Positions 46,269 to 62,992 of a stretch of 64,000 bases of DNA are shown here, one piece after another. Position 1 is the first letter of the stretch. Each line of letters opens with the position of its first letter. The notes beneath the pieces are model-generated. The model was not told the origin of the DNA and did not search any database. It worked only from the letters and a program-made list of their open reading frames with translations. Made by a program: the position numbers and the translations under genes. The stretch covers positions 56,606,001 to 56,670,000 of the forward strand of contig OX597831.1 in NCBI GenBank assembly GCA_951406725.2, written 5' to 3'. This stretch comes from Octopus vulgaris. Lineage: Eukaryota.

Positions 46269-48570
46269 ATTAGTGTCACTACTGAAGAACCTTTAGGTCA
46301 CTCTGATCGTTCCTTGATCATGGCCGACTTGTCTCTGATTGGTTGTAACAAAATTCACAACCATCTTCAAACTGCCCACTTTGATTGAAATAAAGCAGAC
46401 TGGAACTCTTATTGTACCGAGGTGCAATGCCCAAACTAGCTTGAATTTTATGTCTATGGAGATGTGAACACTATACTTCAAAACATTCTGAATTCAATAT
46501 GGACGGCATGTGCAGCATCGGTACCACGCAAGCACAAAAACCTCCTAATAGTGCAATTTGGGAGACTGCAGCAGTCCGACGTGCCAGGAAAGAATGCTGT
46601 AATGCTGAACAGGAATACAAAATGCACAAATCAGAGATTAACAGGAAAAAGTGCAATAGATCATCCAACCGTCTCAAGCAGATGACAAAAAAGGCAGTGC
46701 TTGAATTCGAACAGCGCATAGCAACCAACCCTGACAGCAAAGTGTTCTGGAAGTATGCACATTCAAAGCAGAGACCTACTCTCCAGTTGGTCCCTTTCGC
46801 AATCTCCACACAGGCCAGATTACTGACAATCCCAAAGAAAGTGCAGAAATTATTGCTGGATGCTATGCAGGCATCTTTACTGTCAAAGATAAAAATGTTC
46901 CATCTCCATCACCTCTGACACTGGACTCTATAACTACTATGAAATTTACACCAGCAATGCTACAATGCCACCTTAAGAATAAACATAACTATGCCTCTCC
47001 TGGTCTTGAGGGTGTTATATACCTACTTCTCAAATGCTGTGGGTACTTTCTTCTGAACCAACTTTCACTATTCTTTCTATTCTGTCTTGACAATGGTGTT
47101 ACTCCAGAGCAGTGGAAAACTGCCAGTGTTATCCCTCTATTCAAAAAAGGTGACCGCACATCGCCTGTCAACTATCACCCTGTTAGTCTTACTAGCTGCA
47201 TCGCTAAACTGATGGAATCCTGTGTCAGAGAAACCCTCTGGAACTTCTGGAAGTCTCACAGCCTCATCCAGCTGTCACAATTTGGATTTATTCCTAACTC
47301 CAGATGCTGTAATCAACTCATCGAGTTTCTTGAGGACATTACCTGAATCACTGATGGCAGCTTCTGGGTGGATGTTGTTTACCTGGACTTTGCTAAGATT
47401 TTTAATTCTGTGCCACACAAAAGACTTATGGTGAAACTCTCTGTAATGGGTGTAAGAGATGATCTCTATAACTGGTTGAAGTCCTTCATTATTGGCCGAA
47501 AAGAGGTTGTCACAGTTCTAGGACAGCACTCTTCACCCTATGAGATGACATCTGGTGTACTATAGGGATCTGTTCTTGGTCCCCTTTTATTTGTTGCATA
47601 TATTAATGACATAGATGCCAACTTAAAGAATGCCACAATGCTGAAATATGCTGATGACATCAAGCTGTACCTCGAAATAAAGAAGACAGATCCTGTACAC
47701 TATAGATCTTTATTGCAATCTGACCTGGACACAATGCAGCAATGGATCATGGACTGGCAACTCAAGCTGGCCGTGGACAAATGTACCACCATGCATTTTG
47801 GGAGGAAAAACCCAGCGTCTACTTACTCCCTGCATAACCCTAATCTCAAAAAGTCTTCTTGTGAACATGACCTGGGCATTATTGTCGACAGCGATTTGTG
47901 TTGGACAAAACACATTGCTAAAATTGCCAAGAAGGCTGAGAGTGTCTTGGCATCACTTACCAAGTCCTTTGTGAGCTGCTCTCCTGTGTGGCCTCACCGG
48001 TCTGGAACCCCTATCTTGCCCAGGATATTAATCATCTGGAAACTATTCAGCAACATGCAACCAAGAGAATACCCTCCATCAGGCATTTGCCATATTCTGA
48101 ATGCCTTACTTCCCTGGGCAGGGATACATTGAAACTCCAACATCTGGCAACTGACTTGGCAGACACCCATAAAATTATTAACCATCTTACTAACAATAAC
48201 TCTGAGCACCTTTTCAAACTCCACCTGACTAACACCTGTGGACATGTTTACAAAGTCAGAAAACAGTACAGCTCCCATGACTTTCGGAAACATTTTTTTC
48301 ATGCTAAGAGTTGCTGAAGCATGGAACAGACTGCTGGCATGAGTTGTTAGTTGTCGGAGCACTGCATCCTTCAAAACTTCCATGCTTCCTAAGATGCGCC
48401 AACATTACACCCGATTTTCTCCCCTCCATACGCATGCAAGCATATATCTGACTCATACACTGTTCACTTTCCAGACATTTGTACATTACTGCATATACTT
48501 TATACGCTCTTTTGACAAGTTATAGTGCACCAGAGCACTGTATACAATAATTTCATTATTATTATTATTA
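46269..48570 (+). mobile_element. 5'-truncated CR1-clade LINE (end of APE + RT), (ATT)n tail
   Basis: PLGHSD (APE end), FKKGDRTSPVNYHPVSLTSCIAKLME, VYLDFAK, GSVLGPLLF, KYADDIKL and RVAEAWNRL. Stops and frameshifts present. Possible attaatt TSD at 46262-46268 and 48567-48573. Confidence 0.93.
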
Positions 48571-55480: not shown

Positions 55481-57077
55481 CCAGTGACGATTATTAATAT
55501 TTTTATTTCTTGTCCCTGGGCAAAACACTTCGTGACTTTGTGCTTGTTTATAAAAGATATAATAAAACTATTATGATTTATATTTTATCTTTTAACATCT
55601 GCTTAATACTTCAATTTTTGAATTTTTCCCTTTTTTTAAATGATTTTCTTTTTTATTCTTTTTTTTTCTCACTACAAATGCTCCGGCTTACCAGCGGTTG
55701 AACATTATCAGTTTTTTTGCCAACTAGCATCAATATCTTGGATTAAGTCAGCCCTCGTTTGTCTTGGAGAGGTGCACATGTATGTGCAAAGGCTGCCGAG
55801 CGAAAATTCTAAGATCCAACAGCATCAGTCTCTTTTATTGTTTACCTGTCATAAGAGTAAAAAAAAAAAGAAAAGAAAAGAAAGCATCGCCAAGCCAACA
55901 CCCGAGGCAACTACTTAGTTTGTTCTTTTATTTATTTATTTCACAACAGACAGTCATCCAATCTACCTTCCTTTGCAGCTATCAACCAGACATCACCTTT
56001 AAACCAACGTTACAAACGCTTACTAATCTCTCCACCACTACTACTGCTGCTACTACTTCTTTAATTCTAACTTTAAACGTCACAACCCACTCACTGGTAT
56101 TCTATATCACCCCAAAAGATAGTTACTTTGGCAACAGCTGTTGGCTTTTAGTATTTTTACAAGAAAAAATTCTAATGCGAACGTGCACCAATTTTATGCA
56201 GCCGACATAACTAAATGCCACACCCCTATTTAATGACAAACCAAAACACTGATGCAATTCGAACAATGAAACAATACATTATACATATGTCAGATGTTTT
56301 TCTGTCTCTATAGTTAGCCAACATAACATTTAGCTTGTGGGGCTCAGAAGTTACATTCTTGAGATGCTTCATATGACCCATAGTTAATTTGCAAATAAAA
56401 CTACAGAACAATGTTTAAGTGTAATTATTTCAACTATTTCACTGTTTCTGCTTCAAATTTACTGTAATTGACTTTTGCATTTTTCACTCCTTGCAGCAGA
56501 TGGTATAAAATATGGACCAGTGATTCATAGAGGGTTAAATTTAATCAACAAATTCTAAGCATAGAGATGTGGTTAAGAAGCTTGTTTTGCAACCACATGG
56601 TTTTGGTTCAATCCCACTGCATGCCTTGTAAATGAATTTACAGACAGAAACTGTGTGGAAGCCTGTTGTGTGTGTGTGTGTGTGTGTATGTATATCATCA
56701 TCATTTAATGTCCATTTTACATGTTGGCATGAGTTGGACAACTTGACAGGAACTGGCAAGGCCAGGGCCCACACCCAATTCCACAGTCTGTTTTGGCTTG
56801 GTTTCTACAGATGGATGCCGTTCCTAATGCCAACCACTCTACAGAGTGTACTTGGTGCTTTTCACACGACACCATCACCAGTGCATTTTCAGTGGCACCA
56901 GCACCAGTGCGTTTTACGTGGCACCAGCACCCATACCAAATCTTTTCTCATGGCACCTTGGTTTTTAGGATCTTAATTTGGTTGTGGTGGGCAGGTCTTC
57001 TTGAGTACAGCAATGTGCCACGTATCTCAGTCCTCTGTCATCTCCTTCATAAGGTTCAGTCTTTTGAGATCAGCCTT

Positions 57078-57110
<33 letters not shown>

Positions 57111-57399
57111 AGGTTCCCTACTTACTCAGCATGGAAAACGCTTACAGCCATTGGAATGAAAGGAAAGGAGTGAAGGGTGGCTGTGCACAGGATGGGAGAG
57201 GCAGCTGAAAGGGCCTCTTGTTGGCTTTGGAGCAAGAGAGAGGAGTTAAGCTGGAAGCCAGGAGATGTACAGCAGTGATTTGGCCACCTCTGCTGACCCA
57301 CCGACAGCACCTGATGAACTTTAGATATCATCTGATGACATCAATTCCTCCTGGCCACTTTGGTGAATGGAAAAAGCACCTCCTAGGTGTTATTAACAC

Positions 57400-57760
57400 A
57401 CACACACTAGATAAGGTTTGGCCAGAATTGACCTAGGCCATGACTAACTTATAAGCACCACTGGAAAAGATATTTAATGATGTTTTCATATTACAGTCAT
57501 TCTTTGGACTGCTTATTTGAGTAAAGAGTTATTGTTTGCAGAAGTACATCCGGTGTAGGTGGTTTCTCTGGAATTTATTAGAGATATTCATCCTGGAACT
57601 GTTTGAATGTTATGAGATCTTTTTCTTCTTTTATGTGTCTTGATCTGATGTTAAGGAGAGCAGGGCCAACTGAGGTGAAATAGTTCTGTCTTAGTGTTGT
57701 GATATGACATGGGCATGGTTTTCAAAGAGGACAGATGGCATGGATGTAACATGTAGAGTA
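57400..57760 (-). mobile_element. 3' end of a CR1/L2-type LINE
   Basis: Minus-strand remnant ITTLRQNYFTSVGPALLNI...TFKQFQDEYL..IPEKP...NNNSLL, resembling CR1 ORF2 C-termini. Confidence 0.65.
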
Positions 57761-57839
57761 ATTTATTATACACTAAAATAAATACTTTTTGCATGATGTT
57801 GACTGCAAAACGGCAGTCATCTTGACTTTCTTTGCCTTC

Positions 57840-57922
<83 letters not shown>

Positions 57923-57949
57923 TTTATTTAAAGCAGCAGAAAATTCAAC

Positions 57950-57996
57950 AAAACATGTTACTCTGAGTTTCCCGTTGCCGTTCATCAGACAGTTTT
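57950..57996 (-). ncRNA. Minimal type-I hammerhead ribozyme candidate in a short Penelope-like terminal fragment (57921-57996)
   Basis: Minus strand AAAACUGU-CUGAUGA-A-CG(GCAA)CG-G-GAAA-CUC(A)GAGU-A|ACA(u)GUUUU. Intact core, GNRA-capped stem II with an A.G mismatch at its base, palindromic stem III, GUA site, 8-bp stem I. AATAAA at 57923-57928, then (TA)n. Confidence 0.72.
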
Positions 57997-58351
57997 ACGC
58001 TACTGGCATAAATAAACTTGTTTCGCATTGGCAAAAGTGTGTTGATTCTAATGGTGTGTATTTTGATTAATAAAGTTTGGTTTAAGCCGAGATATGTGCA
58101 TCTGAATTTAAAGGTTAAAAACCTCAAGAACTTTCTTGACAACCTATTTATGTGTTTACTCCGGTATATATATATAAATATATATATATATATTTTTTAG
58201 GTTGTCAAGAAAGTTCTTGAGGTTTTTAACCTTTAAATTCAGATGCACATATCTCGGCTTAAACCAAACTTTATTAATCAAAATACACACCATTAGAATC
58301 AACACACTTTTGCCAATGCGAAACAAGTTTATTTATGCCAGTAGCGTAAAA
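57993..58351. repeat. Perfect inverted duplication: 57993-58146 vs 58198-58351 (154-bp arms, 51-bp spacer)
   Basis: Exact reverse complement of the mariner 3' end including its TIR. It produces the duplicated FYATGINKLVSHWQKCVDSNGVYFD peptide in the track. Confidence 0.95.
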
Positions 58352-59470
58352 ATGCTGCATTCTGGTGGCAATGAAGTCGTTGAAGGTGTGTTTGGCATCA
58401 TCTTGGTTTTTGAAGCATTTCTCATGCAGAAAGTTGTTGATGTGCTTGAAAAAGTGGTAGTCAGTAGACGAGAGGTATGGTGAGTATGGTGGATGAGATA
58501 GAGTTTCATAGCCCAATTTGTTCAAATTCTGCAGGCTCAGTTGTGCAACGTGTGGCCGAGTGTTGTCATGGAGAATTGGTCCTTTTCTATTGACCAATGC
58601 TGGCTGTTGTTGTCAGAGTTTCTTATGCACTTTATCCATTTGTTGACAGTACTTCTCTCCCATAATAATTTCGCCTGGATCCAAAAAACTGTGATGGATG
58701 AGACTGGCTGCAGACCACCAAACAGTCACCGTGACCTTCTTTTTGTGCAAATTTGGCTTTGGGAAGTGCCGTGGAGCTTCATTGGCATCCAACCACTGAG
58801 CTGAGTGTCACCTGTTGTCGTAAAGAACCCACTTTTCATCACAAGTCACAATCCAGTCGAGAAATGGATTGTTCTTGTTGTGTAAAATAAGGGAAGACGA
58901 CACTTCGAAATGGCGTTTTTTTTTGGTTGTCATTCAATTCATGCGGCACCCATTTCTCAAGTATTTTTGTTTTTCCAATCTCTTTCAAGTGGTTGGAAAT
59001 TGTCGTATATATTATGTCTAATTCAGAAGCAAGCTCTCAAACAGTTGTGCATGGACTGGCTTCCACTAAGGCTCTTAGTTGAGTGTTGTCAACATCCGAT
59101 GGCCAACCACCACGCTTATCATCTTCAAGACTCTTGTCATGGTTACGGAATTTCTTGAACCACCATTGTGCTGTACGTTCACTAGTGGTTCCTGGGCCAA
59201 ATGCATTGTTGATATTGCAAGCTGTTTCAGCAGCTTTTCGGCCTAGCTTGAACTGGAATAAGAAAATTGTGCGAATTGGCTTTTTGCCCATGTTGTATTC
59301 AACGTTCTGGAAAAAATGGCCTAATTATTCAAAAAGAAAAAGACTAACATGATTAGATAGAGCGAAAAACAGGCTTTAAAATGATATATAAAGTTAAAGT
59401 AATTTAACGAAAATTAATTTGAAAATACATCTTTTAAAACCAAAATTAAATATTCTGCAAGAACTTTCTT
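58197..59470 (-). mobile_element. Near full-length cecropia-subfamily (Hsmar1-like) mariner, inactive
   Basis: TIR ttaggttgtcaagaaagttcttgagg, with a truncated partner ctgcaagaactttctt ending at 59470. Transposase remnants at 59291-58274: IRTIFLFQFKLGRKAAETA...WWFKKFR, VTCDEKW, ILHDNTRPH and HPPYSPYLSSTDYHFF. Confidence 0.93.
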
Positions 59471-59485
59471 ATACATATATATATA

Positions 59486-60864
59486 TCTTATATCTTAAAA
59501 GGCAAGTTGTCTATCTGTGTGTGTTATGTGATCCACTTCTACTCCTACAATTTCCAACCAAATTTGACATGTGTGCTCTCTTTGACTCAGGATGGTTTTT
59601 CTTATAATTTTTTCCTCGAAATTCTGTGCCCCCAACATAAATAGACTACTCTCAATTCACCTAGGATTTGGCTTGAGCCAGCAAAAAATCGTGACACACA
59701 CCTAGCTTGAAAAAAATCAATATTTTACTTTAACTGCGGTGAGCTCTTATTGACTGCTTGCACAGTACTGCCAGCACTATTCATTTGCAAATTACGATTT
59801 GCATCTATTTTCACGTGAGCGCTCTTTTTCATATAATTATTCCAACTTAAACTAGCCACTTCAAAACTCTTACCTAAAATTAAAAATCCTTAATTTGGTC
59901 AGTTTGATTAACATTTTTGCCAACTACAATTTACTATTTTTTGGGTACTACACATTCACCGCTTTTTCCTGAGGACTTTTTCTATTGTTCAAATTGGTAA
60001 TTCTCCACCATTCCTTGACACAAAAGATCCAATATAGGTCAGCTGCAAAGAAAAGTAAACATATACATACAAATGAATCTGCCAAGGATGCCACCAGGAG
60101 GAACCCTCTCAATGCACTTAGGATGGCTTCAGCACAAAGAAGGGAAAGTGAAGAGCAGCGTTGTGATTGGTTAGCATGTATTGTTGTGCAACGAGCTTCC
60201 CAGAGGAACAAGCAACGTTCAGCATGCCAAACAAGAAATGCTTCCTCTACTGCTGCTGCACCATCTTCAGAGACTGCAGTACAACATGCAGTTTGACTTA
60301 CAAGAGATGCTGCAGCAACTGCTGCTGTGCACGCTACGGAAACTACAGGGGTAAGACAACAACTGGAGGCTACAACTCAGTGAAGGGTTACACGACATTC
60401 CTACTCAAGGCCATGCTCCTCGCGGTAGTCAAAGACAGCATTCAACTATGATCCTACAATTGACTACAGTAATCACCCTGACATTCAAATATGCTGCATG
60501 TCCACAATCTGCCAATTATGCGGAGTTTAAAAGTGGCCAGGAGAAACACCCGGCATGTGCTGCTCCAGCGGTAAGATTACAGTACTTCTTCTACAAGATC
60601 CTCCACTCCTTTTGACTGATCTTTTGACAGAGGTGCCTCCTTATTCTCATGACTTTCTCAAGCGGATACGTGCTGACGACTGCATATGAGATGGGTATTT
60701 CATGCCTTCCTTTAAAGTGCAGGGGAAGATTTACCATAGAATTGGTTCCCTGCAGGCACATGACGCTGCCTCACCTCAGTTTCTTCAGATCTACTTCGTG
60801 GAAGACTACACTGACCAGGTATACTTAACAAACAGCCCCGGGCCACACCGGGTATGCCTGCTAG
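59486..60864 (+). mobile_element. Internally deleted Helitron with Rep/Hel N-terminal remnants
   Basis: Start A|TCttatatcttaaaag. Zn-finger-like AFNYDPTIDY...CQLCGV*KWPGETPGMCCSSGKI...QDPP. MPSFKVQGKIYHRIGSL...PQFLQIYF. 3' hairpin cccgggccacaccggg followed by CTAG. Confidence 0.9.
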
Positions 60865-61200: not shown

Positions 61201-62992
61201 TTGTACCAGAATGCCCCACCATGACTGTAATCACAGGTCCCTTGCCTTGACCTTCGGCAAACAACCTTCCACCAATGCCCTTGATCCTAGCAAAAAGAGT
61301 TTGACCACAGCATGCACCAAAGCATCCATGTACATACACACACACACCCCCTATAGTCATTTGACTGTAGCTATGCTGGAGCACTGCCTTTAGTTGAGAA
61401 ATTGAACCCAGGACTTATTCTTTGTAAGCCTAGTACTTATTCTATCAGTCTCTTTTGCCGAACCGCTAAGTTACAGGGACGTAAACACACCAGCATCGGT
61501 TGTCAAGCGATGTTGGAGGGACAAACACAGACACACAAACGTACACACACACACACACATATATACATATATACGACGGGTTTCTTTCAGTTTCCGTTTA
61601 CCAAATCCACTCACAAGGCTTTGGTCGGCTCAAGGCTACAGTAGAAGGCACTTGCCCTAGGTGCCACACAGTGGGACTGAACCCGGAACCATGTAATTCA
61701 TAGGCAATTTACTTACTACACAGCCACTCCTACGCCTATATATTTTTGTCCCCCTAGCATTGCTTGACAACCGATGCTGGTGTGTTTACGTCCCCGTCAC
61801 TTAGCAGTTCGGCAAAAGAGACCGATAGAATAAGTACTGGGCTTACAAAGAATAACTCCCGGGGTCGATTTGCTCGACTAAAGGTGGGGCTCCAGCATGG
61901 CCGCAGTCAAATGACTGAAACAAGTAAAAGAGTAAAAGAGTAATATATATTGTTATATTTCGGAATGGTCATTTTGCCAGTTTGTATATATGTATGTATG
62001 CATATTTGTACACATGCACATATATATACATATATATGTGTGTTTGTGTTTTCATGTCTGTTTTTTTGCCTACCCCACCCATCACTTAACAACTGATGTT
62101 GGCTTGTTTTCATCCTCCATAATTAGTGGTTTGGCAAAAGCAACTGATAGAATAAGCACCAGGCTTTTTAAAAATAAAAGTACTAGAGTTGATTTGTCTC
62201 ACTAAAACCCTTCAAGACAGTGCCACAACCTAGCCACAGTCCAATGACCGAAACGAATAAAAGATAAAATAAGAAAAAATTGGCCTTGTACCTTGTCTAA
62301 AAGGAAATCAATATTATTGATAAGAGAAGTAATCTGAATCATATAACCTGCTGCTCACCAGCATTACAGCATTTGACTTTGACTTGTCTTTGACATCAGA
62401 AGATTTCACTCGTGTCTGACATCAGAGCTATTAAGCAAAGCTTCAACTTAGAAGCTCCAACTGACTCTACTTCCTTCCCCCACTCCACACTCTTTAGGCC
62501 AATGAGGGAGCCTTTACACAGTTGTCCTACCTGCTAAAAAAAGTAGCCGAATTTCCATTAGATAACACCCTACTTTCTTAGAAAAGGACATACAAAATAA
62601 TGTGCTACTTGATTTCCTACCATATAGACAGGATAATAACTGCTGGGAATGCCTTTGGTCATAGATCTGCTTGGTCAAGGCTGACCTACAGGTAAACAAT
62701 AATCTGACTCCATCAAAGCTCTTTTCACCAATCTTGCAGACACACCTGTCTAGCATTCCACTATTCAGTTATACCTTCCATACTCCTCAATCTGTACGTT
62801 AATGACCTGATTCCCACTAACTCTAAACACACACATGTACACACAACACACACGCATACACACATATGCATGCGCACACATGCACACACATGCACGTGCA
62901 CCCCACCCCTCCACACACACACACACATACAGACAATACCATTCTTTACCTTAACCTTCTACACATAGACTTCATCCATACACAACATCACA

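Follow-up and report, generated by a model that had tools for sequence, protein, structure and literature searches.

Insertions of EN+ Penelope-like elements (PLEs) are described, in the available text of PMC8557442 and PMC3846280, as having an inverted, 5′-truncated partner copy, a tail at one end and a (TA)n target. In vitro, PAc, a Poseidon element of Anolis, cuts and extends both strands of an AT-rich target, uses uncleaved RNA as template and starts reverse transcription at two internal sites bounding the tail (PMC11167929, in the portion available). Resolution of the insertion is still an open step according to the accessible parts of PMC8557442 and PMC11167929. For L1, the accessible sections of three reports describe foldback inversions of 52 to 220 bp at 4 insertions (0.3% and 0.1%; PMC10191854), 22 templated insertions (10.1101/2024.08.27.596794) and three inversions plus three templated pieces (PMC11702581), with templates shorter than 250 bp and close to the site. 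Local fold-back inversions, mostly of 5 to 34 bp, are also reported at DNA breaks in yeast with no retroelement involved (PMC11724301, available text). The minimal hammerheads of PLEs are expected to work as dimers with low activity, the monomers being inactive (Cervera and de la Pena 2014, PMC4209133, as far as its available text goes). Inverted partner copies, tails, TA targeting and host-DNA capture are already published for PLEs, as are target-site inverted duplications for L1. No description of an inverted flank copy acting as filler inside a two-ended PLE copy (a twin) was found in the open-licence literature, supplements aside, and the available text of PMC9977147, PMC12016303 and 10.64898/2026.07.22.740005 held nothing on flank copies.

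Such a filler is present in a window of 64,000 nt of the Octopus vulgaris genome (contig OX597831.1), the window being the whole stretch of DNA that was analyzed. Genome searches were performed on its home assembly of 2.8 Gb and 227 contigs. The locus shares with published EN+ PLE insertions the hammerhead-bearing pseudo-LTR (pLTR), the inverted partner copy, the tail at one end, the (TA)n target and microhomology at the junctions. It is unlike those in the available text of PMC8557442 and PMC3846280 in having a tail of 70 nt rather than 30 to 40 nt and in its centre, an inverted copy of adjacent DNA that is undescribed there. Two internal starts bounding the tail, cutting and extension of both strands, an AT-rich target and uncleaved RNA as template would be shared with PAc, for which the available portion of PMC11167929 reports no flank copying. 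The resemblance to the L1 foldback inversions, as far as these are described in the available texts, lies in a rare, short inverted duplication of adjacent DNA apparently made during resolution (0.3% for L1, 2/189 twins here), and the size of 154 bp and the distance of 34 nt from the tail end are those of an L1-type target-site foldback inversion; the class of retroelement is different, and here two cDNA arms facing outward enclose the filler. A microhomology-led inverted duplication next to a break is shared with the yeast inversions (PMC11724301, in part).

Layout of the insertion and its parent family

The locus is a two-ended PLE insertion made up of a short end, an inverted flank filler and a tail end. 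From left to right, the order is (TA)n, arm A on the minus strand with its short end outward, the filler, arm B on the plus strand with its tail end outward, and (TA)n again:

57874..57921, no strand: left half of the (TA)n target microsatellite, with (CT)n upstream (from the sequence)
57922..57996, minus strand: PLE arm A, a piece of pLTR; its 3′ terminus, AATAAAG adjoining TA, is the short end (best relatives 99%)
57950..57996, minus strand: minimal type-I hammerhead motif (motif reading and fold prediction)
57993..57996, no strand: 4-nt A/T microhomology between arm A and filler (five A/T in both parents, four at the junction)
57993..58146, minus strand: filler between the PLE arms, a 154-bp exact inverted copy of 58198-58351 (arm alignment and genome search)
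58147..58164, plus strand: PLE arm B, the final 18 nt of the tail, with the long end adjoining TA (pLTR reference 277-299 matches 58146-58168)
58165..58197, no strand: right half of the (TA)n target and a T run (from the sequence)
58198..58351, plus strand: filler template, the end of a decayed mariner, its first base one inside the terminal inverted repeat (genome matches and family alignment)
58197..59477 (right end approximate), minus strand: decayed mariner-type DNA transposon, the transposase having stops and frameshifts (from the sequence)

The last of these was presumed to be a mariner from its transposase motifs. The segments 57993-58146 and 58198-58351 are reverse complements over 154 bp with 0/154 mismatches and a 51-nt spacer, and the template begins 34 nt from the tail end (58198 versus 58164). 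A preliminary description of this DNA had already recorded the mismatch-free inverted copy of the neighbouring mariner end and the TTTT overlap at 57993-57996, and both were confirmed. Its picture of an insert of ~75 bp plus the copy was incomplete, as 58147-58164 proved to be a second, 18-nt piece of the same element on the plus strand, joined to the filler through a 1-nt microhomology at 58146. The 5′ end of arm A falls at an A5 run within a truncation hot spot of the family. Elsewhere in the window, an inverted pair of repeat pieces (61355-61916; 90% identical, arms of 127 nt) probably represents two SINE-like copies, and the sole stop-free stretch of at least 200 codons (46735-47343, plus strand) is presumably a LINE-type ORF fragment.

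A genome search placed the arm A piece (~75 to 76 bp) in a large and abundant family. Intact copies run for 70 nt beyond AATAAAG to a second fixed end and, in loci L074 and L089, then into an ORF; the final 18 nt of this extension are those found at 58147-58164 on the plus strand of the window. AATAAA is, therefore, the first of two fixed ends and has no terminal-signal role here: the motif does follow the hammerhead (57928-57923), as initially noted, but the element continues past it. Tail ends number at least 4,678 in the genome by an exact 28-letter pattern (control, 0), and a shorter pattern occurred 5,058 times.

Upstream of the pLTR, L087 and L090 encode an RT (YRDD) followed by an endonuclease domain, while the order in L089 and L074 is pLTR, tail and ORF start. 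The pLTR is linked in this way to a single ORF with RT and C-terminal GIY-YIG, as is required of an EN+ PLE; absence of any link to PLE ORFs had been named beforehand as an outcome that would count against the PLE assignment. Atlas neighbours of the protein were PLE-like clusters, part of whose members carried HTH_animal, RVT_1 and GIY-YIG, while the ORF protein itself gave no significant Pfam match and no recognition from PDB sequences. Translations of L089, L090 and L087 contain RWK, DKT, a CxCX5C linker and CxxC plus CxH near the end, with the second Cys changed in L087, and lack CCHH. The ORF with RWK, DKT and CxCX5C but no CCHH is shared with the Hydra clade in the available text of PMC8557442, and these motifs, together with the (TA)n target, match that description such that the family would be classed as a Hydra-type PLE. 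The Neptune clade, which needs a CX2-5CxxC linker and CCHH between GIY and YIG, was rejected, there being no cysteines between those motifs; a non-LTR retrozyme, consisting of non-coding tandem units without an ORF, was likewise rejected, as the repeat here forms the pLTR of an element that has an ORF. The link to the RT and GIY-YIG ORF and the 99% identity of arm A to its nearest relatives support the reading of the insertion as a recent PLE pLTR fragment, in line with the original proposal. A second, asparagine-rich PLE-like ORF of another family is nested beside the studied element in L090 (1682-3444, minus strand).

Two-ended copies and flank copying across the genome

Among 189 distinct twins, 188 had one short end and one tail end, a figure that describes the partner end, since most loci were chosen by one end. 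This set was drawn from fetched loci of up to 4 kb; it excludes twins with less than 300 nt of flank and misses L266 and L230. A stricter end rule, which misses L161, gave 139 of 141 twins with one short and one tail end. The pairing agrees with published PLE data on two internal RT starts, although use of one start per end, as here, is unlike PAc (both as given in the available part of PMC11167929). Both arms commonly stopped just 5′ of the hammerhead at reference positions 141-150 (26/90 tail arms and 29/57 short arms). This stop zone (L089 4361-4370, minus strand) lies just 5′ of hammerhead stem I and contains a CTAG palindrome and a possible splice acceptor; a 12-bp hairpin is predicted immediately upstream, with its base at the zone. 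The stops there may come from run-off where the RNA has its 5′ end or from a block to the RT. Many other inverted repeats that are nearly perfect lie between TA tracts, in L006, L022, L052, L074, L099, L113 and L119 and also in L128, L139, L155, L157, L171, L209 and L245, and appear to be twins from different repeat families; structures of this kind abound in the genome.

Non-element filler of at least 18 nt was carried by 16/189 twins, and an inverted copy of local flank by two, the window and L161. In an unselected sample consisting of the first 90 tail ends on contig C1, inverted filler was detected in 0/59 twins and 0/90 loci, giving 95% upper bounds of about 5% and about 3%, respectively. 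L161 (G000:C22, about 2,813,450-2,814,800, near 2,814,131) has the layout of the window insertion. Its arm A stops in the shared zone and is followed by roughly 520 bp of tail-side flank in inverted orientation; a direct piece of 82 nt and a tail of 15 nt complete the structure. The non-satellite part of its filler was identical to the neighbour in 330/340 columns, the arms being 3% diverged. As this filler also matched 5/20 control loci through its SINE part, a separate genome-wide match check was made, and only partial matches of at most 90% were found elsewhere. Arm A ended in the hot spot in both cases (reference 150 and 144-145).

Inverted filler was present in 2/39 short-tail twins and 0/149 others (Fisher p = 0.04, a post hoc comparison that includes the discovery case; 1/38 short-tail twins without it). 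The other 37 of the 39 had tail arms of ≤24 nt with no local filler. Three fillers were direct copies of local flank (L109, 286 bp; L374; L379), and two more, L266 and L230, were found by hand; in L379, L374, L266 and L230, these are 24 to 51 nt long, lie between the arms and were copied from flank no more than about 1 kb distant. Direct flank duplications beside family insertions (L109, 286 bp; L258, 102 bp; L218, 29 bp; L158, about 290 bp) resemble long target-site duplications or tandem re-duplications. The remaining fillers had no local match, some looking like later insertions; those of L271, L387 and L145 (70 to 262 nt, between or inside arms) had no match within 1.5 kb. Targeted searches for a third inverted filler found none. 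Many further near-perfect inverted repeats were inspected among the fetched loci but left uncounted: L024 resembles a pair of separate LINE ends, the repeats of L154 and L150 look like repeat-family similarity, and most of the others look like twins of different families.

Inverted flank filler is real but rare. The preliminary description had suggested that PLE integration itself may generate inverted duplications of host sequence and had proposed a genome search for inverted copies beside other hits. That search produced a second case with the same layout, but the frequencies of 2/189 twins and 0/59 unselected twins indicated that integration is not a routine source. The single locus is of little weight, consisting of 154 bp of dead transposon duplicated in a rare scar already known from L1; there is no sign of function for the inverted copy, which is probably a scar of resolution, seldom seen in this abundant PLE, at an insertion that is otherwise ordinary. 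The asymmetry seen across the family is the more useful result, as the 188/189 pairing, the shared stop zone and the flank fillers with very short tail arms provide a sharp genomic readout that can be tested in the existing in vitro PLE system.

Origin of the inverted copy

A search of the genome with the filler gave 100% identity only for the two arms, with the next best match at 95% (40 scored of 636 candidates). At four positions, the filler arm differed from 7/7 ungapped nearest mariner copies (8 nearest copies compared, one left out for an indel). The 95% ceiling for other copies and these four private substitutions indicated that the filler was copied from the adjacent decayed mariner. 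No matches to the fillers of L001, L374 and L379 were found in 20 random control loci.

The outer ends of the insertion are the two fixed 3′ ends of the family, facing outward, and the filler is local. We consider it probable (about 0.68) that this was a two-ended Hydra-type PLE insertion into (TA)n and that the inverted flank copy arose during closure of the insertion break. The steps suggested below draw on the family pattern and on in vitro work with another PLE (PMC11167929, in part). The element protein would cleave the TA tract on both strands, and the two 3′ ends would each prime a cDNA, using one of a pair of internal starts separated by 70 nt. In the usual case, cDNAs of about 85 and 155 nt would anneal head to head near the CTAG palindrome. 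Here the tail-side cDNA would have reached only 18 to 19 nt and, for that reason, could not have overlapped its partner; a free 3′ end may then have copied 154 nt of tail-side flank before the ends were joined via the 4-nt A/T run and a single base.

Two routes to the copy may be envisaged. The tail-side end could have folded back on its own strand over a TA hairpin, which suits the geometry: resection would leave that strand unpaired, a 12-bp hairpin is predicted for the TA tract and the copy begins at the tract edge. Alternatively, the hammerhead-side end (arm A) could have jumped onto the flank, which suits the normal length of arm A in both cases. As the junction homologies are symmetric, either direction of copying fits, and the polymerase may have been the RT or a host repair enzyme. 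The initial idea of a cDNA switching template onto flanking DNA holds in that the filler arm was copied from the adjacent mariner, but the event was two-ended rather than the work of a single cDNA, and the sequence is compatible with both directions and both polymerases.

A bolder version of this scheme is possible but doubtful. PLE integration would be obligately two-ended and asymmetric, with one protein dimer and one start per strand, and, upon early abortion of the tail-side cDNA, the telomerase-like RT itself would jump from RNA to chromosomal DNA and copy the flank. If this were true, microsatellite-targeting PLEs would write small inverted duplications, ready-made templates for hairpin RNA, into genomes, and the affected genomes hold thousands of such insertions from many families.

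The main rival to copying during closure of the insertion break places the copying later. An ordinary twin would have formed first, most of the tail arm would have been lost to a subsequent double-strand break in the twin or TA tract, and fold-back repair by the host would have copied the flank in inverted orientation, the PLE being a fragile site rather than the maker of the scar. Such a break, or a host polymerase, could leave the same scar, and the sequence is compatible with a filler younger than the insertion. At yeast breaks, local fold-back inversions arise without any retroelement (PMC11724301, available text), a twin is a near-perfect, hairpin-prone palindrome and the homology at the tail junction is only 1 nt. 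A later break is nevertheless unlikely, given that arm A looks untrimmed, stopping in either case at the truncation hot spot usual for the family, and that arm A and the filler look young (99% identity to nearest relatives and 0/154 mismatches, respectively). Nor does the short tail call for a later deletion, since tails of ≤24 nt without local filler are common (37/39).

The remaining explanations are all much less probable than a later break. Capture at the RNA level, with a mariner-end transcript serving as second template for the PLE RT, has precedents in host DNA captured between pLTRs (PMC3846280, available text) and in template switches of the L1 RT between RNAs (PMC11702581, in part), yet the filler was templated by a copy just 34 bp away from the insertion rather than by any of the hundreds of family members, and there is no gene or long ORF nearby; we regard it as improbable. 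A fold-back chimera arising in assembly or sequencing appears slightly less probable still. It would account for arms that are 100% identical, and contigs from five public runs had no piece across either junction, while three raw-read runs gave no aligned reads. Four of the contig runs also lacked coverage, at 99% identity, of parts of the mariner allele itself, so that they say little about the junctions. Against an artefact are the second element end, in the place and orientation expected from the family, and the diverged arms (3%) of L161, which has the same layout; the asymmetric 51-nt spacer and the return to the left flank also argue against it. Least credible is aberrant local transposition, in which a mariner transposase moved its own end into a PLE stub. 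This is disfavoured because, while the filler starts at the mariner terminal repeat, it does so one base inside the terminus and without the TA duplication shown by mariner family copies, the local mariner is decayed and no mariner is involved at L161.

The hammerhead motif

The motifs of a minimal type-I hammerhead were located on the minus strand, where the preliminary description had placed them along with the cut site: CUGAUGA (57988-57982), a GCAA loop (57978-57975), GAAA (57971-57968), ACUC-A-GAGU forming a palindromic stem III (57968-57960) and GUA with a predicted cut at 57959/57958, followed by AATAAA (57928-57923). The CUGANGA, GAAA and UH boxes are all present, as are a palindromic helix III and an additional base following A9, and these features are shared with the minimal PLE hammerheads of the available text of PMC4209133. 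The term 'complete' was, however, too strong. Stem II consists of 2 bp (CG/CG) with a GNRA loop and an A.G mismatch and lacks the G10.1-C11.1 pair, such that there is no stable helix II, while stem I has 8 bp and one bulge. The 2-bp helix II with its GNRA loop, the missing G10.1-C11.1 pair and the change of U4 to C in 155/262 family copies are unlike the minimal PLE hammerheads as far as that text describes them. The base preceding GAAA varied among the 262 copies (A, 96; G, 86; T, 64; C, 16), and no compensatory pairs were found in the stems, the family being too uniform. A search with Rfam, as initially proposed, gave no hammerhead match in window 56000-60000 at E≤1 or in L087 3000-3200 at E≤10; matches to miRNA precursors in window 56000-60000 were below gathering scores and were discarded as reflecting the long hairpin.

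The computed energy of the helix III self-duplex was −7.4 kcal/mol, while the monomeric hammerhead fold reached −0.4 kcal/mol against a predicted minimum of −5.6 kcal/mol. Cleavage by the lone copy in the stub would, on these fold energies and the inactivity of published monomers (PMC4209133, in part), not be expected. Arm 5′ ends showed no peak at the predicted cut (positions 188-189, 2/90 tail arms and 1/57 short arms); as they do not pile up there, the hammerhead has no visible part in filler formation and, on this reading of the arm ends, is an ordinary passenger of the pLTR. Near position 2011 of L312 (minus strand), another repeat family carries its own minimal hammerhead motif, which differs in its palindromic helix III.
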